In this document: piece after piece, positions 8,444 to 63,333 of the stretch
Layout of the letters: every line of letters starts with the position of its first letter
Position numbering within the stretch: the stretch's first letter is position 1
IMG/VR virus record: IMGVR_UViG_3300036852_000142
Span: 1-63,790 of that record
Origin: a virus
Lineage: Duplodnaviria; Caudoviricetes
Length of the DNA: 63,790 nt
Reading direction: 5' to 3' (one strand)
The notes under the pieces: generated by a model
Database searches by the model: none
What the model was told of the DNA's origin: nothing
The model's input: only the letters and a program-made list of their open reading frames with translations
Program-made: the position numbers and the translations under genes

Positions 8444-11400
8444 TATGGCAAAGTTATCCTAACTGGAATTCCATCAGGTTGAGGCGATTTGCCTTTTTGG
8501 TAAATTTCGAGATTTAAGCTCGACTGTAAACTTCCGAAGTCTGCTAGTTGTTGCCTGCCAGCATAGATTGTACTCGGCAACAATGCTCCACCAGCGGTGA
8601 TGTTTCTGACAGAAAAAAAGTCATTCGTTTTTACTGTCAACCTCAAGGGGAATGGAAATGTTCCCGTGCCCGCTAAAATCAGTATAGGTTTTTGCCCTTG
8701 ATTTGGGTTGAAATTCACATAGACACGATATTCCGTACCACTGAGCAGGAAAGTGTATCGTGGTCCGAGTCTGATATAAGTAGTTTGGCCGTACAGAATT
8801 GGCCCAGCTCGACCAATATCAACATTGTCGCGAGTCCACACTATGACCCCAAAACTCTTATAAGTTTCCAACGCAGTTCCAGGTTGCGTACCTTCAGTCC
8901 ATTCTATTGATATTGGCGCATTTACCAATGTGGGCACGAATGGAGCGGTCGTATTGGTTCTCGTCTCCAAAGCAAGCATCGGGTTTCCGAAGTCATGCGC
9001 CCAGGCATTGGCTTGATCTACTAATTCAACGGTAGAAGGATTCTGGAACGTAAAATCGAACCGGGAGAATGTTTCAACCAACGGTTCCACGGTCATCGCT
9101 GTGACATTTCCGACTACATTATTTTTGTTGAAAGTGCCGGTTGTATAGCTGCCGGGCCAATTACCTTCCCAACTTTCTTCTGCAACTAATAGCTGAACCC
9201 CGTGATTGGTTCCAGTAGTTGCAGGTAGCGTGCGCTTTAGAGTGACGAATCCGCTGGTCCATACCCCTACGGCATATTGAGCGGGCTCTTCGTCAGGTTT
9301 TGGGTGACCTGTGAATTGTGTAAACCAATCACCACTACCATCCTTGCCTCCTGTTATGTCGCTAACCTTGCGCGGTCTCCAAGTGTTACCTGTCCATGTG
9401 AATGGAACGATGGCAGCGTCATCCAACGACTGCCCAGAGGTTACTGCCCGATAGTTATTTTCAATGTTTAGATCCTCAATCAGCAAAGGTACAAACCGGA
9501 CTGCCGCGTCCAGAAAGACAAACCGCTTTCCTGTAAAAGAATCCGCGACACGGTCTTCCGTATCCCGCAGGCCGTTTAATAAAGTAGTTAACTGCCAGCG
9601 GTTTGGATAGCCACCTAACTTAGTGGCAGTACCAAAGCGAAAGACCATATCGCCAGCCAAACCCGGATTAGCACCGTTAAGTACATCGGCTTTAGTAACG
9701 CTCGACAGACTCTGAGTCGTGTTGTAAAGATCAACGACAATCTTTCCGAGGTTAATGAAGTTGGTTCCTGTTCCATTTGAGGTGAGATTGATTGCCGTTC
9801 CGCCCAGCGTCGCTGCCAGCTTGAAAGTATCGCTTGACTTGTCGCGCACAAAATACGGCGTTCCAGCAACTAAAGGCGCGGGCAGAGCGCCTCCGGTATT
9901 ACCAACAGTCACTTCATTACCGTTAACTAATTGATTGCTAATGCTGGTCAGTAGATCCGTTGTCGAGTCTGCCGTGAATACGATGTCTATAACTTCCGGA
10001 TCGGGATAAAGATCCGAAGCACTAACAATTGTTCCCATCGTCCCTGGTAAATTAGACTCAGAGAGCTGATACCACTCATTGTTTCTTTCAATATCGAGTG
10101 CAAAGCCCGGCCACGATTGCCCAACGTTTGTACGTGGCGTGCCGACCATGTAAAACCCAACCCCATTGTTAGTTGTTTCATCGCCGTCTCGAAGCAGAGG
10201 TGTATCGAGAAACAGCGCAACGGTCATCGCCGGGATTGGAACTACAGGTTTTTCATAGGAGTAAGGATCTACAACTGCTGATTGATCGAACAATGGCTCG
10301 TCTAAAATAATTCCTTCGCACTCTCGTATTCCTATCCCACCTGAATCCTTTGCGTGCAGGATCGTATAAGTAAATCCATCTGATAACGTGGCGGTGAAGA
10401 TAGACCCAACATTGATCCATAGATGCTCCCAGGAAAGAACATACTTGCAGGGCTTTTCAGTGTAGCGGCGGTAGACCTCTTTTTGGGCTAAGGCTTGGGC
10501 TTCTTCGCGGGTTAAAGTCCACTGAAGATCCAAAGTGGCGCTATCTTCTCCAACGGTAATCTGTCTCCCATATCCCTGAAGTCCTGGCTCGCCATCTCGA
10601 TCGAGATCGACATACTTAACATCTACCCTTCTCACTAGATCGGTTTCGTTTGGCTCAATCGCGTCGATTAAGGTCAGCGGGCCATCTTGGGTTTCTTCAT
10701 CATCACTCCAAGCAAAATCTTTATCCGTTAGAGTGGCAACAGAAGTAAATGGGTACTTCGGTTTACCAACTAAGATCCCCTCTTGTTCTGCGTAAATGAC
10801 ATCGAAAGGAATTTCCGCCGACTGCATTGGTTCGCGCGCCTCGAACTTCGACCCCATGATTCTCAATCCCCGAGGTGTAATTGTCTCCAGAGCCGAAAAG
10901 TCATAATCCCCAGAGTCAATTCCTACCCGCGAACACATGAATGCGCACATTTGGGCCAGGTTCTTTATCGTGTCATGCTCTAAAAGCGCGATACGATTCG
11001 GAATTACGCCTCCCCAACGTGTTAGATAAAATGCTGAGTCAACCTCATAGCACCTGCCTCGATAAGCAGGAGTAGATCCAGCGCCATACTGAGCATCTAT
11101 TGCGGCCTCATAAGTAGGATCAGGGAGTTGAGTTGTGTTGCCAGGATAGATTGCAAACTGAGCGTTGCCACCATGATTTATTGTCCCTGTATCACCTCCA
11201 GTTGGCTCTCTATCCGGTAGTCCATTCCATCGATCAAACGGCACGTCATAATCGGTAGTTGGATCGGGCGGCAGCTCAGGATCGTAGGTTGTATCGGCGC
11301 CAATCGCCGGATCAAGCACCCCGGTTGTGCCTGTGGTGTGGCCAGGGAAAGCGTAAATCTTGTCTATTCCGACGTTGTAAGTTGAGGACTTGTTCTGAAT

Positions 11401-20737: not shown

Positions 20738-21184
20738 TTACACCGTCTTGCTAATGAATAGTCTGAACAGTCCGCCCAGGTTGAGATAGTGCTTTCCGGT
20801 GGCTGCATTGAATTCTTCCCGGTTAATCGGCTGTTCTCTGCGAGCAGTGAAGTAGTAATCTCCTGACGGTTGATATACGGCGACTCCAAGAACATCGTCG
20901 ATCCGCTTATCGACTTTCTTGACTGTGGCTGTTGGGCGGCCTTCGGTGACAACCCGGACTTGGAAGAGTGGTAAGGTTGCGAGCCTGACCGTCCCCAACC
21001 CGTCAATGTCTGAACCAGCCATAAAATTGAATAAACAATAAGGAAACACGCGACGGTCAGGAGGACTAGGAACAAAATCAGCATAGATCCGAGTGCTAAC
21101 CTCGGCAGTGATGTCCGCGTTTCCCGCGAGGGCAGCAGCGATCCATATTTTTGCTTGCTCAATTTCTGTGATGTCTCCGGCCAC
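20738..21184 (-). CDS. Tail terminator protein (DUF3168-like)
   Basis: ALAGNADITAEVSTRIY...FPYCLF; position in the neck module. Confidence 0.7.
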   Translation of the reverse strand: MAGDITEIEQAKIWIAAALAGNADITAEVSTRIYADFVPSPPDRRVFPYCLFNFMAGSDIDGLGTVRLATLPLFQVRVVTEGRPTATVKKVDKRIDDVLGVAVYQPSGDYYFTARREQPINREEFNAATGKHYLNLGGLFRLFISKTV

Positions 21185-27357: not shown

Positions 27358-28779
27358 TTACCAGTTTAGTGAACGACCTTCTCTGGCTTCTGAAGCCTGA
27401 TAAGCCATCGCGCCAGCCACAAACGAATCGGGTGGATGCCCAGACCCTCCTAAATCATCATTAGTACAATATCGGTGCTCGCCTTCGCAGTAACGGATCT
27501 TTGGCGATACGATCGATCCGTTCTCAATTGCGGCAATATAGTCTGTAAACACGTCAGCGCGAACCTGCCCAACTAAGACAATGCCCTCGGCCTTTACAGT
27601 TAGATAGTCATCTACTACGTTCCCGATTCCTGTCTTATCGTGACATGCCCTACCACCATATCGTTCAACCCGTTCATTGAATTTTTTAATCATCATCGGC
27701 CAAGCCATGCGCCCTAACCTGATCCAAGAAACGCGCTTCATTGGGCGACAGTCAATCCGCCAAGTATCAATAATCGTCCAGTCTTTTTCTTTTGCCCAAT
27801 CACAGCCGTGAGCATACTTTGCGCCTTGGACAGGAACTTCTATCTCAACTTCCCGCCCTGCTTCACCTGTATACTCACCTAGATTCTTTTGAAAACATGC
27901 ATCGACCTTTTCAGGAAGTATCGCCCTTCCTTCCGGACTGGGCTCCTGAAGATCATATTCAGCCTGCCACATTGAGGCGGTCACTTCACCGCGCTTGGAT
28001 TCGATTTCGCTTTGTGTTAGCCATCCATCAGGTTCCGCACTTGTTTCCTTCCAGCACCATTCCTGCACTGGCCATCCGTTCTCGCTAGCTCGCTTTAATA
28101 CTTCCGTAAACGTTGCATCTGCATAATGGTGGGTGGAACTCAATACTGTCTGTTTCGGCACCGTTAGAGTTGACATCGGTTGCCCCATCGCGGCATCGAG
28201 AATTTCCAGATCCATTTCGTCAACCTCATCGCAGCGAAGCCTGGAAGGGTGCGGACCGCGAGCTGACTTGCTCGAAGCCATAAGTGCGGTAACAATCCCA
28301 CCACCGCGATAGCGGGTTCTGCGTTGAATATTTTCTTCACCGCTTGACCACTTCTGTAAGTATTCGAGAACGCGAGTTGACTGCTCTCCAGAGCCACCAA
28401 GAATTGTTACCTCAGCACCGAGCGTGTCGGCTTCGCAGTGGCCTAATAGAGCTAACAGATAAGTCTTGCCGCCAAAGCCCCGGCTGGCCTTCCATATCGT
28501 TACTCCATGGCGCGCAAAGTACGCGTCTGCGAACGCACGGAATGGCGTTGTGTGGTTTGGACAAACTTGGTTATCAGGAATTCGCAGTCCAAAGGTATTA
28601 AAGAGAAAGGCCTTTAATTCAGCATCATTATGTGGCCCTTGTTGGGCTGCGCGGACTGGCTCAATGTCCGTTGGATTCAGCCAATTGGCGACTTCCTGAA
28701 CCAACGAGTCTTGTAAATTCGCTTGAGGCAGAGGCGAAGATGGAATTTCTAAGGGTCGTGTCTGTGACATGCTTCTCAA
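27358..28779 (-). CDS. terL: Terminase large subunit (true start probably somewhat downstream)
   Basis: Walker A SRGFGGKT, Walker B LRCDEVDE, nuclease GCDWAKEKD, DKTGIG, HPPDS. Confidence 0.9.
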   Translation of the reverse strand: MRSMSQTRPLEIPSSPLPQANLQDSLVQEVANWLNPTDIEPVRAAQQGPHNDAELKAFLFNTFGLRIPDNQVCPNHTTPFRAFADAYFARHGVTIWKASRGFGGKTYLLALLGHCEADTLGAEVTILGGSGEQSTRVLEYLQKWSSGEENIQRRTRYRGGGIVTALMASSKSARGPHPSRLRCDEVDEMDLEILDAAMGQPMSTLTVPKQTVLSSTHHYADATFTEVLKRASENGWPVQEWCWKETSAEPDGWLTQSEIESKRGEVTASMWQAEYDLQEPSPEGRAILPEKVDACFQKNLGEYTGEAGREVEIEVPVQGAKYAHGCDWAKEKDWTIIDTWRIDCRPMKRVSWIRLGRMAWPMMIKKFNERVERYGGRACHDKTGIGNVVDDYLTVKAEGIVLVGQVRADVFTDYIAAIENGSIVSPKIRYCEGEHRYCTNDDLGGSGHPPDSFVAGAMAYQASEAREGRSLNW

Positions 28780-29338
28780 CGGCGCGCTTCAATCCTTCTG
28801 TAATGGCGCGCATCATCTCCCGAACAGCCTGTGCAGTAAGCATTTCTTGGTTTTCAACGGCGCGCTTCCTTTGCGATTCTACAACCTTTGTCTTTTTGAT
28901 AACGAGTTCTTCAATCTTTTCCCACGCGTCCCAATCCGCTGCGCCTTCCACTAGCAATTCACCGAGCGCATTCAAACTTGCCGCCATGGCCACGGTGTTG
29001 CCTGCCTGTCGCGCTTCTCGCGCATCATTGTAATTCTGAAGAGCCTGCTTCCACTTTTCCCCTGATTCGCCAGAGTCAACCCGTTTGGCAACGTCCATTA
29101 AGCGAGAATGAAGAAGTTTGATGTCTTCAGTTAGATCGAGAAGATCACGACCTTCTAACGCCTGAAAGAGTTCAGCAAAGCGAGTGGGCAAATATTTCGA
29201 GTAAAGTCCGTGTTTGAATGACGGAGCCATTGGGCCGGCGAGGGACTTTCCGCCGTGGTGGTAGCAAACATCTTTACCGCGCATCGCATTCGCGCCGCAT
29301 TTTTGCTTCGTTCGCTTGCTTGTTCGAATACACTTCAC
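28661..29338 (-). CDS. terS: Terminase small subunit (HGGxSTG-type)
   Basis: C...CYHHGGKS...KHGLYSK; directly upstream of terL. Confidence 0.75.
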   Translation of the reverse strand: MKCIRTSKRTKQKCGANAMRGKDVCYHHGGKSLAGPMAPSFKHGLYSKYLPTRFAELFQALEGRDLLDLTEDIKLLHSRLMDVAKRVDSGESGEKWKQALQNYNDAREARQAGNTVAMAASLNALGELLVEGAADWDAWEKIEELVIKKTKVVESQRKRAVENQEMLTAQAVREMMRAITEGLKRAVEKHVTDTTLRNSIFASASSEFTRLVGSGSRQLAESNGH

Positions 29339-31802: not shown

Positions 31803-33226
31803 TACTCCAACTCCGCTCGCAGACTTCCATCGGTATCTAATATAACCGAGGTCGCACCGTTAGAATCTAAGCTAATGATCAATGCTCCGTTCGAGTCCAA
31901 GACAATGCTTGTTGGATTCAGAACCTGGCTTATCAACCCGCCACTTATAACAATGCTTCCGAAGGCTTCCTGGCTTACCACTCCGGTTAATGAGATTGTT
32001 GTGGTCGCATTCAAAACAAACGCGCCAAAAGCCTCGGCTGACCCAATCCCGCTAATAGCAATAAGATGATTAACCTTGAGAATGCCAAACGCTTCGCTGG
32101 AAACTATTCCGCTCAACCCAATTGAGACAGCGCCACGTAGAATTTCTGGTGTTCCAAACACTTCACCAGATCCGATTCCAGTCAAACTCACGAATACTGG
32201 GCCACCTGTGAGGATCGAAGAACCAAAAACCTCGCCGCTTCCTATACCCGGAAGCACAATAGTGCGATTCAACTGTGATGTGCCAAAGGTTTCTAGTGAA
32301 CCAATCCCTGTGAGTTGAATTGCTCGGTTTATCTGTGCTGTCCCAAAGTTTTCAACCGAGCCTATCCCTGGCGGACTTATTGTTACTGCGCCTGGTTGTA
32401 GGGCTGGAGTTCCGAAACTCTCTTGAGACGTAATCGCCGAAAGGCTAATAACAAATGCGCCGCTATTAACGATCAATGAGCCGAAAGTCTCTCCACTGGG
32501 AATACCAGTCAGCGAAATCGTTACGCTTCCCACCTGAATTGTTGTACTTCCGAAAGTTTCAGTACTGGCAATCCCGCTCAGTAATAATCGTAGATTTATT
32601 TGAGGCGTGCCAAAGCCTTCAGACGAGCCAATTCCACTGAGAGTAATGGTGCGATTGACGTAGTGAGATCCAAAACTTTCGGATGAGACGATTCCTACCA
32701 GATTGATCGTGTGATTGATCTGAGGCGCGCCAAATAGTTCTTGTGACGCAATTCCACTTAAAGTAATCGTTACTGCCCCACCGGAAAGCGTAAGAGTACC
32801 AAACGCTTCTACGCTTCCTATTGCGCTCGGCGAAACTGTCTGGTTCAGCCTGAACGTGCCAAACGTTTCTGCCGAACTAATGCCCGAAAGTGACAGGGCT
32901 TGATTGATCTTGGCGGTTCCAAAAGACTCGCCTGAGGTGATGGCCGTTGGGAATATTGAGACAGAACCACGCGCGACGGTGAGAGTCCCAAAAGCTTCTG
33001 CTGAACTTATTCCACTGGCTGTTATGTTTCGATTGATCTTGGCTGTACCGAAGGCTTCCGCCGAAGCGATTGCAGAAGTTGTGAGGTTACGGTTTAGCTT
33101 ATTGGTTCCAAACGCTTCTGCGCTGGCAATAGCGCCCACGCCTGAAACCGTTTGACTTACAGGCGGGAGAACGGCCGCAATTGGTTGGCCTTGCTGCGGC
33201 TGAGGAGGTGGATAGAATAACGCCAT
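31802..33226 (-). CDS. Repeat-rich fibre-like structural protein
   Basis: About 20 copies of (G/A)IxSxExFG at 19-23 aa period. Confidence 0.65.
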   Translation of the reverse strand: MALFYPPPQPQQGQPIAAVLPPVSQTVSGVGAIASAEAFGTNKLNRNLTTSAIASAEAFGTAKINRNITASGISSAEAFGTLTVARGSVSIFPTAITSGESFGTAKINQALSLSGISSAETFGTFRLNQTVSPSAIGSVEAFGTLTLSGGAVTITLSGIASQELFGAPQINHTINLVGIVSSESFGSHYVNRTITLSGIGSSEGFGTPQINLRLLLSGIASTETFGSTTIQVGSVTISLTGIPSGETFGSLIVNSGAFVISLSAITSQESFGTPALQPGAVTISPPGIGSVENFGTAQINRAIQLTGIGSLETFGTSQLNRTIVLPGIGSGEVFGSSILTGGPVFVSLTGIGSGEVFGTPEILRGAVSIGLSGIVSSEAFGILKVNHLIAISGIGSAEAFGAFVLNATTTISLTGVVSQEAFGSIVISGGLISQVLNPTSIVLDSNGALIISLDSNGATSVILDTDGSLRAELE

Positions 33227-35111: not shown

Positions 35112-36650
35112 TCACTTCTTTATCAGAACAAACACCCCGAATTCCGGTGCTGTGTGCGCGTTGACATTCGGGAAGTGGGTGATCTGCGATGCTCCCAACA
35201 GCGGCACGGCAATTAACCCGGTCATAGGAATATTAACTGTGGGATTACTCGCCGAATATGTTCCTGTCGCTACCGGTGGGCCATAGAAGTTCTGCGCATC
35301 GCGAACTTCATACTGCTCGCCGTCCTGCAAGCCAGAAGTGGAAATGTTGACTTGAACAGACAAGAGGTTGTCCCAGTTATAGATAGCGATATTCGCTCGC
35401 CCGCGTTCATACTGATTGGGACGAATGAAAATTTGATTTCCGCTAGTCGGATAACCAGTGGTAGCCGTAATCAAAGTATTGTTGCTCTGCGTGATTGTCT
35501 GCCAAGGCCCAAAATACAATGCACCGTTGGCATTTGTTCCGTTAACTAGATAGTTGCCCGTGGCTGTCACGTTGAAATGTGTCGGCGTTGGGTAGTACGA
35601 CAGCCATGCTCCTCCCATGCTTTCTGTTCTCCGGTTGTAAGTTCGGTTGTTCATGATCACCAAGTCGTGCATCGGACAACAATCCCGTGTGTAGGTGAGT
35701 AGGTTCCACTGCCCATTCTCAAACAGAATGTTGTTATCAAAGGTGGTGGAGTTGACGTAAGCCGAACCATCAGAACTCATTTTCAGCCCTACAGTGAAGT
35801 TCTTGAACGAAATGTTGTCGCGTAACATGCGAATCGTAGTGGACGTGTTCTGTCCATACACCGCGCTGCCTTCCTTGGTGTTGTTAATTCCTCTATACGC
35901 TCCAATGCCCCAGAAGAGAGAGCCGTAAATCTCACCTCCCACAGCAGTTTTCCAGAAACCAATTCCTGGATGCCCAGTGTCATGGATGACCATGTTGATG
36001 GCCTTGTTGCCTACTCCGAACATGGAGATCCCTGGAGAATGGTCGGCAGAGTTGACCACATTCCGCGTCACACTTGCGGAATTCGTAATCTCGAATCCCC
36101 ACCACCACGCATAAGGCCCGTTAGACGTAATGCCCCCGTTCACTGTGGCGCGCTCTCCCGGATAGCCTCTTATAATTACCGGAGCCGCTGCGGTGCCGCC
36201 TAAGTTGCTGGCGAAGATTGTTGCGCCACCTGTCCCATAACCGCCCCCACGCAGACAAACAGTTTTGCCAGGCTGCGAGCCCTTTTGCAGCGCTGCCGAT
36301 AAACTCAATGGACTAGCGAGCGTCCCGGTTCCGGTGGCACTACCGTTCGCAGCAACATAGTAGTCGCAGGTAAACGCTATCGGTGACGGGCTGGGCACCG
36401 GCGACGGACTCGGCACCGGAGTTGGTGTGGGCGTTGGCTCAGGTGTTGGTGTTGCTGTCGGCGTTGGGGTCGGCGTTGCTGTTGGAATTGGTGTCGGCGC
36501 AGGCGTTGGTGTTGGCGTTGCGCAGGGCACAATTTGAGTTACCTGCGACTGCCGATCCGCCGCAATCACTGTCTCAAGACACTTCTCCTGGGCCTGGGTT
36601 GAGATGCTAAGAGAAAGAATAAACGTGCAGAGGAAGGGAATAACTTTCAT
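35112..36650 (-). CDS. Secreted right-handed beta-helix (polysaccharide-lyase-like) protein with Pro/Thr linker
   Basis: Signal peptide, (PT)n linker, [37 protein letters not shown]. Confidence 0.75.
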
Positions 36651-37829: not shown

Positions 37830-38526
37830 TGCTTTGCTCCTCCTTTTCAAAGTAATCACAACCAGCAAGAAACTTCGTTCCTGGGCGGTCGTAGGTTGGG
37901 TGCTCTTGTCCTTTAGCCTTGATATACCGCGCCCGAAACTTCGCACAAAATTCAATTAACTCAGGTTTGCGCGCCATTAAACCGCGCGAAGTCTTAATCT
38001 TGTTTTCGTCCGCGTTCCAGTCCACCAAGTGCGAATCGTCGTACTGATTACAGGTTGGATTGATTAAAACACGGACACCGTAGCGCGACTTCCAGTAGTT
38101 AATACTGATCGTGGCGGGGTCCCGTTCAACCAGTGCCGCAGCTTGTTTGAGCCAAGCGCGTTCTTCGTCCTCACGGATTTGCGCCTCTACCACTTTCTTC
38201 TTAGCTTCGGTGGCAAGTTCCTGTTCGCGTATCTCTTGCTGCTTGCGCTGGCGTTCAGTGTTTGCAGCAGACTCTCTTGCTTCGGTTTCTCGTCGTACTT
38301 CCTCTACCGCTTCCTTCGCTAACCGTTCACGTTCCAGCGCCCGCAGTCTGGCGGCCTCGCGTTCACTGGCCTCTGTGCGAATACGAGCCTTCTCGGACTC
38401 GTCCAAAACAGCGCTACGAGAAGCTGTGGCAACGGCTGGATTACGAGAAACGGCTTCCTGGCAAGCCTCACGGATTAGAGTGACAAGTTGATCGTCGGTG
38501 AGTTGGGAAAAGTCTAAGGAGGTCAT
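37810..38526 (-). CDS. Coiled-coil hypothetical protein
   Basis: E/R/A-rich helix; translationally coupled to its neighbours. Confidence 0.6.
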   Translation of the reverse strand: MTSLDFSQLTDDQLVTLIREACQEAVSRNPAVATASRSAVLDESEKARIRTEASEREAARLRALERERLAKEAVEEVRRETEARESAANTERQRKQQEIREQELATEAKKKVVEAQIREDEERAWLKQAAALVERDPATISINYWKSRYGVRVLINPTCNQYDDSHLVDWNADENKIKTSRGLMARKPELIEFCAKFRARYIKAKGQEHPTYDRPGTKFLAGCDYFEKEEQSNGDSNS

Positions 38527-39101
38527 TACGCCACCTCCTTTTTCTCGCCAGTCGCTGAAAACTCAGCAGCCGCCGTAGGGCAAAGCGTGTCAAGTCTGGC
38601 TTCCAACTGCGCGGCCACGTACTGTTGGCCAGAGTGATCGCGTCCGTCAATCCACTTGCGACTCTCAATCCAAGTGCGAGGCTCGTCCTGCAAAAGCACT
38701 AGCGCGTCGTTGATCTCTTGCGTCGCGGTTTTGGTAAACTTAAAACTCTTTTCTACTTCCCAGTCCCAATTTCCATTGATTGCCCCAAACAGTTTTAAGT
38801 CTCGCAGCGCGGACGCGAGATCGTATTGAAGGGCGGAAGCAAGGAAACTGGCGCGCAGTGTCTCAGCCCAAGCAATTTGCTTCGGGCTTCCGGTTAATTC
38901 GGGTAGGCCAGAAGCCTTAGCAGATTCGGCTGCTTGTGCAGACTGCTCCGCGTGCTGTTTCTGCTTTTCTTCCTGAAAACAGTCAGAACACAGGCGACTT
39001 GGGCCTACGTTCTCTAGCCACCACTCTCGGTTCTTGTGTGGGCCCGTTAGGTTGTGGGTTTCGGTGTGTCCGCAGGCGTGTTCAACTTCGTATTTTGCCA
39101 C
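38526..39101 (-). CDS. Conserved phage Zn-finger hypothetical protein
   Basis: HACGH...LCSDC...LPELTGSPKQIAWAE; GTG start after AAGGAG. Confidence 0.65.
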   Translation of the reverse strand: MAKYEVEHACGHTETHNLTGPHKNREWWLENVGPSRLCSDCFQEEKQKQHAEQSAQAAESAKASGLPELTGSPKQIAWAETLRASFLASALQYDLASALRDLKLFGAINGNWDWEVEKSFKFTKTATQEINDALVLLQDEPRTWIESRKWIDGRDHSGQQYVAAQLEARLDTLCPTAAAEFSATGEKKEVA

Positions 39102-58496: not shown

Positions 58497-58525
58497 TTGA
58501 CTCTTTTCCCGCGCCTGATTACGAT
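58497..58525 (+). promoter_or_regulatory. Sigma70 promoter TTGACT-N17-TACGAT, antisense to the early leftward transcript
   Basis: Near-consensus boxes with a 17-bp spacer. Confidence 0.6.
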
Positions 58526-58587
58526 CCTCGCCTCTCTTCCAACCGTGCGGCGTCTCGTGGGCGAACCTGTGAGGCGTTTTCGTGTCT

Positions 58588-58788
58588 TTAGGCCGGCATC
58601 TCTACGCGCTCATACTTTTTGGGAAATTTCTTGATATAGCGCGGGAAACCCAGCTTTAATATTTCGTCCAACGCCTGCGACCGCGTATGCCCACGCAGTT
58701 CTGCGGCCTCGTCCAATCTGGTTTTGAATTCCAGAGTGCTTCGCGTTGAAATGATTGGATTGTCTTCTTGTTTAATCTGTTCGCTCAT
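58588..58788 (-). CDS. Ribbon-helix-helix Cro/Arc-like regulator
   Basis: IISTRST..FKTRLDEAAELRGHTRSQAL; first gene of the leftward arm. Confidence 0.7.
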   Translation of the reverse strand: MSEQIKQEDNPIISTRSTLEFKTRLDEAAELRGHTRSQALDEILKLGFPRYIKKFPKKYERVEMPA

Positions 58789-58789
58789 A

Positions 58790-58844
58790 GCGTATACCAA
58801 TATACCGTATATCGGTATATGTCTGCAAGCGTCAATGTGACCGA
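58790..58844 (-). promoter_or_regulatory. Leftward promoter/operator block
   Basis: tcggtcacattgacgct plus four TATA boxes at 7-8 bp spacing. Confidence 0.7.
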
Positions 58845-58877
58845 TGGTGTTTTACGGACTTGGAAAGGAGCGTTTAC

Positions 58878-59201
58878 ATGTATACAGTTCTCGGCAACGG
58901 TATGCCGCGAAAAAAGCCAGTAGGCCCGGTAGTTAATTTCCAACTCAAGCTGTACGGCGAGGAAGCAGAACGTTGGCTGAAAATCAGAGACCAAGCAAAG
59001 AAGCGGAACAACTACATAGGCGATACTGGCATCAATAGACGGTTGCTAGGACTCGATCCTGATAAGGCTGGGGAAGTCACGGAGAGAGACCGTGCGTTCT
59101 TTTTAGGCCCCCAATCAAGCAAACCAGCGGAAATGCTTGGCCGCACGCCTAGCGGCAAAGCCCATATCAAGGACGTGTCCCCCAAAGTTAGACACAGATA
59201 A
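58878..59201 (+). CDS. Putative repressor
   Basis: Divergent from the Cro-like gene, between the two operator blocks; SD GGAAAGGAG. Confidence 0.5.
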   Translation: MYTVLGNGMPRKKPVGPVVNFQLKLYGEEAERWLKIRDQAKKRNNYIGDTGINRRLLGLDPDKAGEVTERDRAFFLGPQSSKPAEMLGRTPSGKAHIKDVSPKVRHR

Positions 59202-59222
59202 GATCAAGGGTATTCCTTTTCA

Positions 59223-59489
59223 ATGGAAAGTTGTAGCGATCCGGCCTCTTACGAGGTCTCGGATACTGTTGTTTTACCAACACTTGACCTCAACGAGTTG
59301 CTTCTAGAGCATCCCGCCGCTAGCTTTGTGTTTCGCTGCGACGAAAACCTGCTCATAGTTGACCGCGCCCAAAGACCCTACGAAGGATGCCTGGTTCTCG
59401 TAAAAACGTCTCACAGCTACCTTGTCGAGCTGTATACAGGCCAACAGACGTGGGGTGTCGTAACCTACCAACTCCACAAAACTGCCTAA
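59223..59489 (+). CDS. UmuD-like (S24) protein lacking catalytic residues
   Basis: LDLNELLLEHPAASF..LLIVDR..WGVVTY, but no GDSM and no TVKR. Confidence 0.7.
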   Translation: MESCSDPASYEVSDTVVLPTLDLNELLLEHPAASFVFRCDENLLIVDRAQRPYEGCLVLVKTSHSYLVELYTGQQTWGVVTYQLHKTA

Positions 59490-59508
59490 GCTAAAACCGA
59501 AAACGAAT

Positions 59509-59562
59509 TCGGTCACATTGACGCTGGACTTGTATACAAATATAGCGTATACATCTATACGC
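59509..59562 (+). promoter_or_regulatory. Rightward promoter/operator block (inverted twin of 58790-58844)
   Basis: Identical 17-mer tcggtcacattgacgct plus four TATA boxes. Confidence 0.7.
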
Positions 59563-59594
59563 GAATCCGGCAGGGCCAAAAGGTTAGGTGTTGG

Positions 59595-59870
59595 GTGACT
59601 GAGAAACAAGAAATCAAAAAGAGCGGTTCTGAGGATTGCCCTCATTGCGGAGGCCGGCGAGAGCGCGAGCTCAGAGGCGTGCTGGTGCTCCTAATCGTCC
59701 TGCTCACCTTCGGAATCGGATACATCAAGTTATTAACTGGAGCCGCTGACGACACTCTTGTACCGCCGTGGGCTGCAGGTCTTAGCGGAGCCGCCGTGTC
59801 GATGTATTTCATGTCTCGTTCAGGAGAGCGGATGAGGGAGATGACGCGAGAGATATGTCGGAAACAATAA
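59595..59870 (+). CDS. Two-TM membrane protein, first gene of the rightward operon
   Basis: CPHC plus two hydrophobic helices. Confidence 0.55.
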   Translation: MTEKQEIKKSGSEDCPHCGGRRERELRGVLVLLIVLLTFGIGYIKLLTGAADDTLVPPWAAGLSGAAVSMYFMSRSGERMREMTREICRKQ

Positions 59871-59891
59871 AGCAGAAACAAGGGCGTCAAT

Positions 59892-60235
59892 GCTATGGCC
59901 CGGAGCTGGTTCGGTGATTCATGGTGAGGTTCGGGCCGGCAGTCTAGGCGATGTTTGGTACGTCATGGATGGTCGCGGTTAGGTTCGGTACGTCAGGCTC
60001 GGTTCGGAAGATTAGGCCGATCAAGGCAGTGTTAGGTAAGGCGGGGCAGGCGAGGAGTGGAATCCCAGCGGCGAGTCAAGGAGCGGGTAGGAATGGCACG
60101 GCAGGTGCGGCGGGGCAGGCGAGGAGAGGACACGCTTGGATCGCAGCGGTGTTGTCCGGTTTGGCAAGGTAGACAGGGAAAGGCGGCGATTGGCCTGTAA
60201 GGGCGAATCGTGGCGAGGAAAGGTAATTCAATTCA
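59892..60235 (+). repeat. Pentamer GG(Y/A)-NN array 1 (candidate guide-RNA array)
   Basis: 5-nt periodic G-rich triplets with variable dinucleotides; junctions at 59938, 59992, 60045, 60100, 60114, 60172. Confidence 0.8.
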
Positions 60236-60255
60236 ACTTTACTGAAGGAGAAAGA

Positions 60256-61035
60256 ATGGGAACGAAAGCAACAAAACAATTAGCAGATAACGCAGACGAA
60301 ATGATGGCTAACGCAAAATCGTTAGTCATTCAGCAACCAACAATTTTCAGCGTGTCATTAGAGGTTCAAGGCACGGCTGACTTAATTCAAAACCGATTCA
60401 GTCAGAAGTCGGTTGAGCAGATGCTTCGCAAACACATGGGCATCAGCGTCCAACGTGAAAGCAAGAAACCTCGCGAAGTTTTGGAAGATGCGACGGTTCT
60501 CAATACGGATGGAAAAGTTTGTATTCCGCCCACGTCATTCAAACTGGCAATGATCGCGGCGGCGAGTCAGGTTAAGAATCTCAAGAAAACACAGCTCCGC
60601 ACAGCTTTGTTTATTCAGGGCAACTCGATCCCTATCACTTACCGCGAAATGGTTCCGCGCATGGATATTACGCGCACGTCCGGTATCGGGCGCACGCCAG
60701 ATGTTCGCTTCCGTCCGTCATTCCAAGACTGGAAAGCAAGAATGACGATCCAGTTTGCCGACACGCTGTCAGTTCAAAGCGTGGTCGATTTACTCAACCG
60801 CGCGGGGCAAGTTGGGGTCGGGGAATGGCGCCCTGAGAAAAACGGCGTGTTTGGAACATTCAAAGTTTCCCGTCACGTTGATACGCCAAAAGAGATTAGC
60901 GAAATCGAAGCACAGTGCGCGGTTCCGTTAGTGCCGTTGCGAATTCCTGATTGGGCACTTGACATGGACATTAACCCCGAAGTCTTGCAGAAGATTTTCG
61001 CGGCTCAAGGCGAATCTGAAGAAGTTGCCGCGTAG
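60256..61035 (+). CDS. Stand-alone Cas7/RAMP-like RNA-binding protein (Vipr-like)
   Basis: LEVQGTADLI (beta1), IPPTSFKLAM, RFRP.F.DW, C-terminal G-loop GVGEWRPEKNGVFGTF; ATG 60256 after SD GAAGGAG. Confidence 0.8.
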   Translation: MGTKATKQLADNADEMMANAKSLVIQQPTIFSVSLEVQGTADLIQNRFSQKSVEQMLRKHMGISVQRESKKPREVLEDATVLNTDGKVCIPPTSFKLAMIAAASQVKNLKKTQLRTALFIQGNSIPITYREMVPRMDITRTSGIGRTPDVRFRPSFQDWKARMTIQFADTLSVQSVVDLLNRAGQVGVGEWRPEKNGVFGTFKVSRHVDTPKEISEIEAQCAVPLVPLRIPDWALDMDINPEVLQKIFAAQGESEEVAA

Positions 61036-61037
61036 TA

Positions 61038-61370
61038 GCAGAGGCAACGCAATTCGGGGCACGGCTTGTTGGGGCACGGATTGGCAGGCGGGGCTTATTT
61101 AGGCTTGGCATTAGAGGCACGTGAAGGCACGGTAAGGCGGGTGGGGCAATGAGTGGATGGTTAGGATTGGCTGCGTCTGGAGAGGTGAGACAAGGCAGGC
61201 GAGGAGAGGCACGACGCGGGAGCCTGGGCGTGGATTCGGAAGGGCTGGGCGAGGCAGGCAGGGACAAGCTAGGTCGGGTTTGTACGGGCGAGGAAAGTCC
61301 GGGTAAGGCAATCACGGCAGGCATGGCTAACTAGGACAGGCTTGGAAAGGACGGGCGAGGCCCGGCACAC
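61038..61370 (+). repeat. Pentamer GG(Y/A)-NN array 2 (candidate guide-RNA array)
   Basis: Same 5-nt code; GGCAGGC junctions at 61083, 61194, 61253, 61316 and a variant at 61136. Confidence 0.82.
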
Positions 61371-61393
61371 ATCAACTTTAAGGAGACAAAAAC

Positions 61394-61903
61394 ATGAGTA
61401 CAGATATAACCAAAATTGCGGGCACGGAAATTCAGTATCTGCCGACAGAAGTGAAGCGCGAAAGGAAAGCGGTGGTTGTAGATCGTGAGCTAGAACGCAT
61501 CTACAGCCAACACCAAAGAATTACCGTTGATGATGTTCTGGCGGACGCTTTGAACGATGAAAGCCCACTACATAGTTACTTTGAATGGGATGACGCAGCG
61601 GCCGGTGAAAAGTACCGGCGAGTGCAAGCCTATTCACTAATTATGAGCAGCAAGTTCATTGTTCAACTTGTACAAGATGGCAAGGTAGAACCCAGAACAA
61701 TTTCTCAGTCAGGACAAGTCCGCAAGCTCGTTAGCGCATTTCGGGGTGAAGGATTCCGAATGCGAAATGAGGCACTAGCGGACGGTGAAATGCGCCAGGC
61801 GATTATCGAGGGCAAGAAATCTGTCTTGCGCTCTTGGTGCGAGTCCACCATTGACATTCAAGAATTGCAACCATTGCGCGAGTCGATTCTGGCGAAGTTG
61901 TAA
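61394..61903 (+). CDS. Conserved partner protein of the RAMP-like gene
   Basis: SPLHSYFEWDDAAAGEKYRRVQAYSLI motif; directly after array 2. Confidence 0.65.
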   Translation: MSTDITKIAGTEIQYLPTEVKRERKAVVVDRELERIYSQHQRITVDDVLADALNDESPLHSYFEWDDAAAGEKYRRVQAYSLIMSSKFIVQLVQDGKVEPRTISQSGQVRKLVSAFRGEGFRMRNEALADGEMRQAIIEGKKSVLRSWCESTIDIQELQPLRESILAKL

Positions 61904-62205
61904 TGATCGAAATTACGCAAAACTTTCGAACTAAATATCGCTCCTCGGTTCAAAAGGCGAGGCGGGAGAAGATCCGCGTAGTTCGACTGGAAAACGATCT
62001 GTACTACGTCGCACGCCGTGCATCAGGGCATGGACGTTATCTCGTCCGTTTTTTCCATAAGAGCGATTCAGTCAGCGCGGTATGTGCCACGGTCTACAAC
62101 GAATCGTGTAAGGGATGCTGGCAAGGGCGGTGCTGTACGCATATCGCCGCAGCGGTTGAGCGCGGGATTAAGCATGGCCGAGAGAAAAGAAAGAAGGCAG
62201 CGTGA
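61903..62205 (+). CDS. SWIM-like Zn-finger protein
   Basis: YLVRF...CKGCWQGRCCTHIAAA. Confidence 0.55.
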   Translation: MIEITQNFRTKYRSSVQKARREKIRVVRLENDLYYVARRASGHGRYLVRFFHKSDSVSAVCATVYNESCKGCWQGRCCTHIAAAVERGIKHGREKRKKAA

Positions 62206-62883
62206 ACTTTCCTTTAGAACACACAAAATTACCTCTTACAGATGAGGAGAGATGGCCAGAAGAAATGAACGACGATCCTGTTAATGAAAACCAGAACCAA
62301 GGCATTCCAACGGGTAAGGTTTCCGAAAACAGTTCGGTGAGCGTTGCTCCGTCCGATCTGATTACGGTTTGCGATCACTGTCTACAGGCTTCTTGCTGGC
62401 AGGCAATCTTCTTCTGAGATGCCGAACTAGCGGCTCTTTGAAACCTGAATCCTGACTCGTACGGGCTTAGCCTGTCGGGAGCGCAAGCGGCGCGGAACTC
62501 GATCATAAACCGGGACGCTGGGGCGATTGAGAATGACCACTTAATGCGCGTTCGGGATTCAGGTTTGAGAGAAGCCTGATACCAGCGAACAAAAGGGATA
62601 ACAGCCGCACGTTAGAAGAATGTAGTTTGCCGGAATTAAAAGAAAGAGGATTTGAAATGTTAGAACTTGAACTTCCAGAACTAATCGAAGTCGTTGAGGA
62701 CTGCTCTGTTTGTGATGGGAAGGGTGAAGTCGTTGATGATTGGCCGCGCCGAGCGAATCGCCCAGGTGAAGAGCAGATGATGAATTGTGCCAACTGCGGC
62801 GGAACCGGTGAGCTAGTAAAAGAAATTTGTCATATATGCCAGAAGTCAGAATTCGAGTGCAAGTGTTTTGATGGAGGAGCCAA

Positions 62884-63333
62884 ATGACCACAATCACAAT
62901 GAACCAAGCTAACGAATCAGAGCCGACTGCGGCTGTAGAAGAAACGCATACGCCAACGCCATGGACAGTGCAGCGACTTCATCACGCTAACGACGAACTA
63001 TGGTTGCAAATAGGTTTCTTCGATAACGATGGGCGTGAGATCGGCCCTATCTGCGAACTTGTGGGCGGCGCGGTGAAGATGTATCGGCCCGTTGCTGAGT
63101 TTCAACACTTAATTGCTCCAGAAGCAGAAGTGCGAGCCAACGCTGAGTTAATCGTTAAGGCTGTCAACTCCTACGCCACCAACCGACAGACTATCGCCAC
63201 CCTGCGGGATGCGGCACGGATGGTTGTTGATTGGTACGAAGGCACAACTAAGGATCTGCCTGATAGAACCGCGATGTATAACGCGGCCTGCGCTGCGCTC
63301 GCTATGCTCGCTATGATCGAGAAGGAGAAGTAA
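62884..63333 (+). CDS. Phage hypothetical protein
   Basis: HTPTPW...ANAELIVKAVN motif. Confidence 0.6.
   Translation: MTTITMNQANESEPTAAVEETHTPTPWTVQRLHHANDELWLQIGFFDNDGREIGPICELVGGAVKMYRPVAEFQHLIAPEAEVRANAELIVKAVNSYATNRQTIATLRDAARMVVDWYEGTTKDLPDRTAMYNAACAALAMLAMIEKEK

Follow-up and report, generated by a model that had tools for sequence, protein, structure and literature searches.

What kind of system is encoded near the right end of a soil phage genome, where a single gene for a Cas7-like protein lies between two G-rich non-coding stretches, and at what would it be directed? The genome is the IMG/VR virus record IMGVR_UViG_3300036852_000142 (Caudoviricetes), a complete record (63,790 bp) that is bounded by direct terminal repeats, and the whole of it was analysed (hereafter the window). 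The elements in question all lie on the + strand, in the order array 1, vipr (the gene for the Cas7-like protein), array 2, a gene for a 169-aa protein and a gene for a 100-aa protein. A first reading of the locus, made from its letters alone (the sequence-only reading), had assigned it to VIPR (Viral Interference Programmable Repeat). We observed homology of the gene product to the Vipr protein of phage SUSP1, units of GG plus variable bases on the strand of the gene, a recurring partner gene, and one guide that obeys the published skip rule. With these in hand, the assignment stands, and the locus is very probably a VIPR system.

VIPR was first described in 2026 as a CRISPR-like, RNA-guided silencing of DNA that relies on a gapped code, in which two bases in three are read, and it has been proposed as a forerunner of CRISPR. 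The three VIPR preprints (10.64898/2026.04.26.720920, 10.64898/2026.04.26.720927 and 10.64898/2026.10.15.759431) come from the Doudna laboratory. The class is already in print, and this locus adds a member to it, not a new class. It would be a clear natural case of VIPR in a soil phage that has not been cultured, and it falls outside both of the clades studied at the bench.

The Vipr protein and the pentamer arrays

When we compared the vipr product with the sequences of the PDB, the sole significant match was chain 36pp_D, the 'SUSP1 Vipr protein' (E 2.6e-4, phmmer with the single sequence), and the alignment included the G-loop. A profile of 56 family sequences matched the same chain at E 2.2e-13 (chain residues 4-191 of 202). 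Alignment of the family profile with the SUSP1 gene product (KT454805.2, 28474-29061) by hhalign gave 97.65% (E 2.6e-12, 166 columns). The product belongs to no Pfam or NCBIfam family, and it matches phrog_4652, whose function is unknown (E 1.7e-18). We found 330 relatives at E <= 0.001 in a large protein collection; nearly all are unnamed, and many lie on viral contigs with the same pentamer arrays.

The fold was modelled with AlphaFold2 from the 56-sequence alignment (pLDDT 89.5, pTM 0.79), while prediction from the single sequence reached a pLDDT of 33.3. Foldseek returned 48 PDB matches at E <= 0.001, those listed being type III and type VII CRISPR RAMP subunits. The first 30 rows of VIA-align were all CRISPR-Cas RAMPs (Z 7.1-11.1), the best with Z 11.1 and a root-mean-square deviation of 3.5 over 155 residues. 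The top matches of both programs were Cmr4, Csm3 and Cas7 subunits (Z 11.1 and 11.0), and sequence identity with the fold matches was 4-14%. The modelled architecture comprises an RRM core, a helical insert, a thumb hairpin (residues ~131-157), a G-loop (184-202), an N-terminal helix and a C-terminal extension (206-259). The product is a sequence homologue of SUSP1 Vipr with a RAMP fold, and the Cas7/RAMP-like protein described in the sequence-only reading is borne out.

In SUSP1, the residues that hold the GGY bases are H17, R138, D177, W178 and R179, according to 10.64898/2026.04.26.720927. In the profile alignment, R138, W178 and R179 correspond to R153, W191 and R192 of the window Vipr, and all three are invariant in the 56 sequences. 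R153 sits on the thumb hairpin, and the G-loop motif reads GVGEWRP in the window and GVGDWRP in SUSP1.

We further estimated the periodicity of the two flanking tracts, which had been described as strand-biased and repeating every 5 nt. Lag-5 autocorrelation was 0.433 in tract 1 (mononucleotide shuffles 0.294 +/- 0.024, z = 5.9) and 0.404 in tract 2 (shuffles 0.300 +/- 0.024, z = 4.4); the z values of the two coding sequences were 0.2 and -2.0. A 6-state hidden Markov model (HMM), which sets an NNNGG period-5 model against background, was run over the whole window on both strands. On the + strand it called only 59908-60224 (317 nt) and 61055-61366 (312 nt), and these are the only long tracts in the genome. 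The same HMM, applied to phage SUSP1 as a positive control, returned one upstream and three downstream tracts, in agreement with 10.64898/2026.04.26.720920. Its one further call in the window was a 44-nt tract on the - strand (20980-21023), distant from the locus and probably due to chance.

In 106 hand-phased pentamers, G stood at position 4 in 91 and at position 5 in 87, counts that are partly circular because the phasing favoured GG. Positions 2-3 were mixed, and position 1 was C in 51, A in 27, T in 24 and G in 4 (i.e. non-G, not strictly Y). The 5-nt periodicity of both tracts is real and specific, but the repeat is not clean.

Module limits were deduced from junctions and not from RNA ends. 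On this basis the window holds ~14 modules, two of them very short. The modules adjoin directly, without intervening non-periodic sequence, at a GGCA/GG step (marked by the slash) that falls one base short of a full pentamer. Their spacings are 53-63 nt in the window and 44, 49, 54, 59 or 64 nt in relatives, in line with the earlier estimate that each guide takes ~10-11 protomers and that the arrays hold about a dozen guides. Across 21 loci of the close clade, 140 of 189 phase shifts carry the consensus GGCA/GGCgaGG, and the segments between shifts peak in length at 54, 49, 44, 59 and 64 nt, all of the form 5n-1 (= 5k+4).

Staggered arrays of guide RNAs (vrRNAs) are described in the legend of fig. 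S18 of 10.64898/2026.04.26.720920 as arrays in which neighbouring vrRNAs have 1 nt in common, each vrRNA thus ending where the following one begins. From a 1-nt overlap, a start-to-start spacing of 5n-1 is predicted, and this spacing is seen in the relatives and in part of the window (59, 59). In its parts, too, staggered VIPR agrees with the window, as both combine pentamer guides with a Vipr protein and an accessory gene. The window arrays fit these "staggered" arrays. Since the modules abut without tails, the locus is not of the characterised type II kind.

The same organization recurs in a comparison set of 236 related loci (78 from IMG/VR, 80 from metagenomes, being the best 80 of 275, and 78 from genomes). 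In 210 of them we observed, close to vipr and on its strand, a tract that measured 80 nt or more. Of these loci, 184 have it only downstream of the gene, 11 only upstream, and just 15 on both sides, as the window does; a - strand tract of any kind was present in only 8 of the 236. Among the 26 loci with no tract, 18 have less than 600 nt of downstream sequence. A tblastn homologue of the 169-aa protein directly adjoins vipr in 70 of the 78 viral loci, so the partner gene put forward in the sequence-only reading is upheld. This protein matches phrog_15946 (function unknown, E 2.6e-16) and no named family of Pfam, NCBIfam, PDB profiles or the protein atlas. Because tracts are found in 210 of 236 loci and the partner adjoins vipr in 70 of 78, we regard vipr, the 169-aa partner and the pentamer array as a conserved module.

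Clean staggered arrays with GGCA/GG steps also adjoin the Vipr homologues of two named phages. In Mycobacterium phage Donkeykong (NC_051648.1), the array lies next to gp49 (locus L280, 1319-1666) and coincides with gp48, a 'hypothetical protein' coding sequence (locus positions 1304-1690). In Gordonia phage UmaThurman (NC_031249.1), it lies next to gp39 (locus L281, 2386-2701) and coincides with gp40, likewise a 'hypothetical protein' (2398-2721). Donkeykong gp48 and UmaThurman gp40 are probably guide arrays and not proteins. Both phages are culturable on standard laboratory hosts and could serve as models for tail-less staggered arrays.

Further period-5 tracts, 80-200 nt long and on the same strand, were noticed at distances of at least several kb from vipr in three of the related virus records: G002 (9414-9527, 38454-38650), G003 (32552-32632, 33056-33150, 36251-36394) and G004 (102682-102775). 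They may be solo guide RNAs such as those reported in 10.64898/2026.10.15.759431.

The putative anti-vipr guide and its code

The arrays were read by the method of the VIPR preprints: units are taken as Y-N-N-G-G, and the successive variable dinucleotides (NN) are laid on DNA with 0-3 bases skipped between them. The search space was 1.35 Mb of related loci together with the window. We observed that one guide at the start of array 2 (the anti-vipr guide), with the dinucleotides GA AA AA GG AC TT GG AC TT, spells the first two codon bases of E-K-N-G-T-F-G-T-F, a segment of the Vipr G-loop.

Its 8-unit core (61045-61084) matched at 16/16 positions when one base was skipped, against 14, 14 and 13 for skips of 0, 2 and 3, while 20 shuffled guides reached at most 14/16. 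The 16/16 match was found in 45 of the 236 loci, always in frame within the vipr homologue. All 45 sites read K-N-G-T-F-G-T-F, and the wobble bases vary between loci. Twelve additional loci matched at 15/16, and the 9-unit version, which starts at 61040 and reaches E194, was perfect in 43 loci. We also scanned both arrays from every start in all five phases. Under skip 1 this returned only the anti-vipr guide besides two G-rich low-complexity strings, and the other skip rules returned 0, 2 and 2 strings. Across IMG/VR, the exact 18-base pattern occurs in 22 stretches, 21 of them on known vipr contigs and one at an unrelated site with the reading DNNGTLGTL.

Here sequence alone suffices for a check of the published skip rule. 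Dozens of diverged genes carry the nine-codon motif that one guide spells. As part of the joint best explanation, it is highly likely that at least this guide is directed against rival phages, at the G-loop codons of their vipr genes. The idea that the guides are directed at competing phages is supported to that extent, i.e. for one guide of about twelve.

When the window's anti-vipr guide was left out of the count, the arrays and vipr genes of the other loci gave 213 exact 7-unit matches under skip 1, compared with 66, 65 and 65 under skips 0, 2 and 3. A guide in a prophage of Sphingomonas soli NBRC 100801 (L171 4083-4198; the same sequence as the IMG/VR locus L038) spells E-D-M-V-R-V-G(M), a conserved Vipr segment. 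It is perfect over 7 units in 40 vipr genes of other loci and matches its own gene at 12/14. Among eight recurrent guides, no carrier has a perfect self-match.

Guides against the vipr of rivals, with self-match below non-self, are reported in 10.64898/2026.10.15.759431, where they are read as avoidance of autoimmunity, and such guides are mentioned as well in 10.64898/2026.04.26.720920. The phenomenon is already known; the G-loop site and the single-codon difference are the particulars of this phage. The preprint 10.64898/2026.10.15.759431 scores guides as we did, by an ungapped count of informative positions against a shuffled-guide null. Most of the guides described there are solo vrRNAs, carried by SUSP1-like phages of Enterobacteriaceae from which vipr and vap1 have been lost, whereas the present carrier retains its vipr. 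The window's guide differs from them in its G-loop coding site, and in an own allele that is one amino-acid change away.

Known systems, proposed mechanism and competing readings

The survey in 10.64898/2026.04.26.720920 lists seven types and 667 representative systems, and a separate paper recovers 99 period-5 clusters. A close system for comparison is the type II system of SUSP1 (KT454805.2; vipr 28474-29061, vap1 28031-28471; PDB 36pp). Its Vipr is homologous to that of the window and has the thumb arginine and the G-loop Trp-Arg in common with it. As in the window, its guides lie up- and downstream on the strand of the gene, and the 1-nt-skip rule, under which the base passed over occupies the wobble position of the codon, holds for the window's anti-vipr guide likewise. 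By BLASTP, the two Vipr proteins align over only 63 residues with 33% identity. The window protein (259 aa, versus 195 in SUSP1) adds the N-terminal helix, a 4-residue insert in the G-loop (EKNG) and a ~55-aa C-terminal extension.

The extension (60871-61035) is modelled as three short helices, and Pro231, Trp233 and Ala234 within it are invariant in 34 close relatives. It is limited to near relatives; most family members stop soon after the G-loop, at ~195-205 aa. The guides differ too. In SUSP1, clean T/C-NN-GG units in runs of 12-16 make up four separate tracts, and after each comes non-periodic sequence (~60-70 nt between the downstream tracts with the same HMM), while the window modules abut with none. 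In type II (the SUSP1 and P. fulva clades) each vrRNA carries an invariable ~40-nt 3' tail, which forms a pseudoknot in the SUSP1 clade. The type II accessory gene vap1 is unrelated to the window's 169-aa partner. It is possible, although we hold this only tentatively, that the clade is a VIPR subtype undescribed in detail. Its marks would be the ~55-aa extension, Asn in place of the His that contacts G, a new accessory family with the motif FEWDD, tail-less GGCA/GG guides and tolerance of GG loss as long as the dinucleotide code is kept. Codon 198, in a G-loop that otherwise hardly varies, would be an arms-race site: phages would aim guides at the commonest vipr allele of their rivals (Thr) and would escape the same weapon by changing residue 198.

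The mechanism proposed here is transferred from SUSP1 by homology; for the window it is based on the modelled fold, on those contact residues that are conserved, on the anatomy of the arrays and on one code-obeying guide. Array 1, vipr, array 2 and vap (the 169-aa gene) would probably be transcribed from the + strand as an operon-like unit. Processing of both arrays would give tail-less guide RNAs, about a dozen in all and each some 9-12 pentamers long, neighbouring guides being divided at the GGCA/GG step with a 1-nt overlap (the staggered arrangement). By homology with SUSP1 Vipr, one protomer would bind per pentamer. The thumb arginine and the G-loop Trp-Arg are predicted to bury G-G-(non-G), so that the two variable bases are presented. 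These dinucleotides would pair with double-stranded DNA, skipping every third target base, and transcription of the bound gene would be silenced and the gene not cut. The phage's own vipr differs from the target at a central codon (Val198 versus Thr) and may be protected by the two resulting mismatches. The locus bears on how many mismatches spare an own gene (one codon here), and on how much loss of the G-G-Y scaffold a selected guide tolerates.

Several observations weigh against the assignment to VIPR. Strict YNNGG runs extend to at most 3 units and NNNGG runs to at most 7 (the array caller of 10.64898/2026.04.26.720920 requires at least 4 units). Tandem Repeats Finder reported no period-5 array in the window, 4- or 6-nt units occur inside several modules, and one unit in four begins with A. 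The lengths of two modules are no more than 14 and 20 nt. The 3' tail and pseudoknot of the characterised type II guides are absent from the window modules, and a search of 59500-62300 against Rfam (hammerhead included) at E <= 1 returned zero families. In the protein, SUSP1 D177 corresponds to Glu190, which is invariant in the 56 sequences, and H17, the contact of the first G, corresponds to Asn46. The 169-aa partner gave no BLASTP alignment with SUSP1 Vap1 at E <= 100, and hhalign of its 35-sequence family with Vap1 gave a probability of 0.14%. Eight of the 236 related loci have full flanks yet no array, and the sequencing runs listed for this DNA include zero RNA runs; two soil DNA runs contain the stretch and may be where it came from.

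The target searches with other guides stand on the same side. The exact 1-nt-skip patterns starting at 60120, 60174, 61259 and 59944 (10 units each) and the 9-unit core of the second of these, at 60179, had zero matches in IMG/VR. We treat these blanks as weak evidence, because the preprints accept 80% identity and the scan was of exact patterns. With <= 2 mismatches allowed, the 11 units of the final guide in array 1 matched none of 401 genomes from the phylum to which the nearest genome hit belongs; that phylum may not be that of the host, so this blank is of little weight. In 310 kb from five related genomes or contigs, searched together with the window, the other guides had no 16/16 match under skip 1. 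Guides of relatives gave no signal on this genome either: 19 reached 0.8 identity under skip 1, versus 17, 14 and 14 under skips 0, 2 and 3. On the own genome, only the anti-vipr guide beat shuffled controls. The gapped NN-pattern search suggested in the sequence-only reading was positive for the anti-vipr guide against rival vipr, and negative for the four other long guides tried as exact patterns in IMG/VR.

We considered whether the system is partly decayed, with the protein intact, many modules eroded and few guides working. Close relatives (proteins 72-80% identical) have cleaner arrays than the window. The window shows more frame slips, two very short modules and more GG-less units than L081, L082, L086, Donkeykong and UmaThurman, and its arrays total ~650 nt, compared with 700-1000 nt in the nearest relatives. 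The guides themselves speak against decay. The anti-vipr guide keeps a perfect code even though 3 of its 9 units have no GG. The last guide of array 1 is shared with L081, a locus whose protein is 78% identical to the window Vipr; between the two copies, 22/22 variable bases are identical but only 19/33 other positions (Fisher exact p = 2.7e-4), and in the window copy the last two units have lost GG. As these two guides keep their code, scaffold erosion alone is not the sign of a dead guide, and loss of GG need not mean loss of function. Both vipr and vap are intact open frames with strong conservation in their families. Decay on this scale therefore appears unlikely to us.

A different role for the anti-vipr guide would be autoregulation, in which it binds the phage's own vipr (60835-60860) and damps vipr and vap, so that it is not, or not only, a weapon against rivals. 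The own site reads KNGVFGTF and matches the guide at 16/18 positions, which only 1 of 200 shuffled guides equalled anywhere in the genome. This value (0.89) exceeds the 0.8 target cut-off of the VIPR preprints; self-protection is no more than possible, and this counts as well against the rival-directed reading. The guide also begins 5 nt past the vipr stop codon, in the same putative transcription unit. On the other hand, it is perfect for the common Thr198 (ACN), the commonest G-loop variant at that residue (42 loci), and not for the own Val198 (GTG), which occurs in two sequences, the window and L083. Both mismatches fall together in one central dinucleotide, and the same pattern of self below non-self is read as autoimmunity avoidance in 10.64898/2026.10.15.759431. 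We therefore judge autoregulation to be improbable, somewhat more so than decay, and prefer the reading of a guide aimed at rivals.

A third possibility is that the tracts are not guide RNAs at all, but G-rich regulatory or structural DNA (such as G-quadruplex spacers) or small G/R-rich proteins, with the RAMP protein in an unrelated role. By reasoning and not by computation, GG pairs at 5-nt intervals might fold into two-tetrad quadruplexes. Open reading frames (47-117 aa) traverse the tracts, and with the low-complexity filter off these gave 39 weak tblastn matches in other loci (E 1e-3 to 5e-7). The first 25 of these matches were ~40-49% identical and lay in distant loci, with none in the closest relatives, and we read them as shared composition (one was checked against an array). 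Period 5 cannot hold a reading frame, and the strand of the tract follows vipr in 210 of 236 loci. Read with the published skip rule, and with no other, one tract matches a rival gene, and the guide shared with L081 conserves its variable bases over its scaffold. We regard this explanation as very improbable.

Least credible of all is a stray Cas7/Csm3 fragment of a type III or type I CRISPR system: the best structural matches are Cmr4, Csm3 and Cas7 subunits, but the PDB sequence search matched the SUSP1 Vipr chain and no Cas protein, no Pfam Cas family was matched at E <= 1, the 330 relatives are mostly unnamed with many on viral contigs bearing the same pentamer arrays, and the complete genome has no Cas1, Cas2 or CRISPR-like array. 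The window Vipr does share the RRM core, the thumb hairpin and the glycine-rich loop with the Class 1 CRISPR RAMPs Cas7, Csm3 and Cmr4 (Z 11.1 for Cmr and 11.0 for Csm). It differs from Class 1 systems in having an RNA step of 5 nt and not 6, and in the genes and array around it. Cas1 and Cas2 families, both of which were recovered in control genomes, had no match in this genome, and no CRISPR-like tandem array was found anywhere in it. The absence of cas genes and of a CRISPR array, as stated in the sequence-only reading, was confirmed for these; Cas3, Cas5, Cas6 and nucleases were not searched by family.

Coordinates and surroundings of the locus

The features described above are collected in Table 1, where module limits and junctions are as deduced from the sequence.

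Table 1. Features of the putative VIPR locus and its flanks (positions in the 63,790-bp window)
Feature	Position	Strand	Remarks
Upstream intergenic stretch	59871-60255	+	385 nt; 40-44% G with its downstream counterpart
vrRNA array 1 (putative), 5' of vipr	59894-60233	+	~8 modules, two short remnants; from HMM tract, lag-5 z, junctions
Array 1, inferred modules	59905-59941, 59942-59995, 59996-60028, 60029-60048, 60049-60103, 60104-60117, 60118-60171, 60172-60233	+	junction-based
Array 1, GGCA/GG-type junctions	59938, 60045, 60100, 60114, 60168	+	
Guide common to window and L081	60179-60233	+	11 units, last guide of array 1
vipr	60256-61035	+	259 aa; ATG at 60256, stop ending 61035
Own copy of anti-vipr site	60835-60860	+	codons E194-F202; Val198 (GTG) where rivals have Thr (ACN)
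Downstream intergenic stretch	61036-61393	+	358 nt; 40-44% G with its upstream counterpart
vrRNA array 2 (putative), vipr-vap interval	61038-61369	+	~6 modules; from HMM tract, lag-5 z, junctions
Array 2, inferred modules	61038-61086, 61087-61139, 61140-61197, 61198-61256, 61257-61319, 61320-61368	+	junction-based
Array 2, junctions	61083, 61194, 61253, 61316; degenerate one near 61136	+	
Anti-vipr guide (candidate)	61040-61084	+	9 units
vap-like accessory gene	61394-61903	+	169 aa; motif PLH..FEWDD..AA.K.R..QA..LI
Cys-rich gene	61903-62205	+	100 aa; overlaps the stop of the 169-aa gene

A Shine-Dalgarno-like GAAGGAG lies immediately 5' of the vipr ATG. Simple scans found no sigma-70-like promoter in 58500-62500 and no terminator-like site on the + strand from 59094 to 62030; the locus is possibly a single transcript. 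The locus had zero blastn matches in the phage collection.

We also evaluated the Cys-rich 100-aa protein as a part of the system. It had no tblastn match in the 78 viral loci and belongs to no family, and it was dropped.

Among the small genes on either side, an 88-aa protein just upstream of the locus (59223-59489) has a weak match to a UmuD-type autoproteolytic subunit, below the cut-off (NF007621, E 2.1e-5, 24.5 bits against a cut-off of 110). Downstream, an 86-aa protein (62627-62887) carries a DnaJ-type CXXCXGXG zinc-finger domain above the family cut-off (PF00684, E 3.7e-8). Elsewhere in the window, nested tandem repeats with periods of 6, 12, 24 and 30 (GGTGTT-like units) lie at 36381-36520, with a period-18 repeat alongside. 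They are the only sizeable tandem repeats of the genome besides the VIPR arrays.

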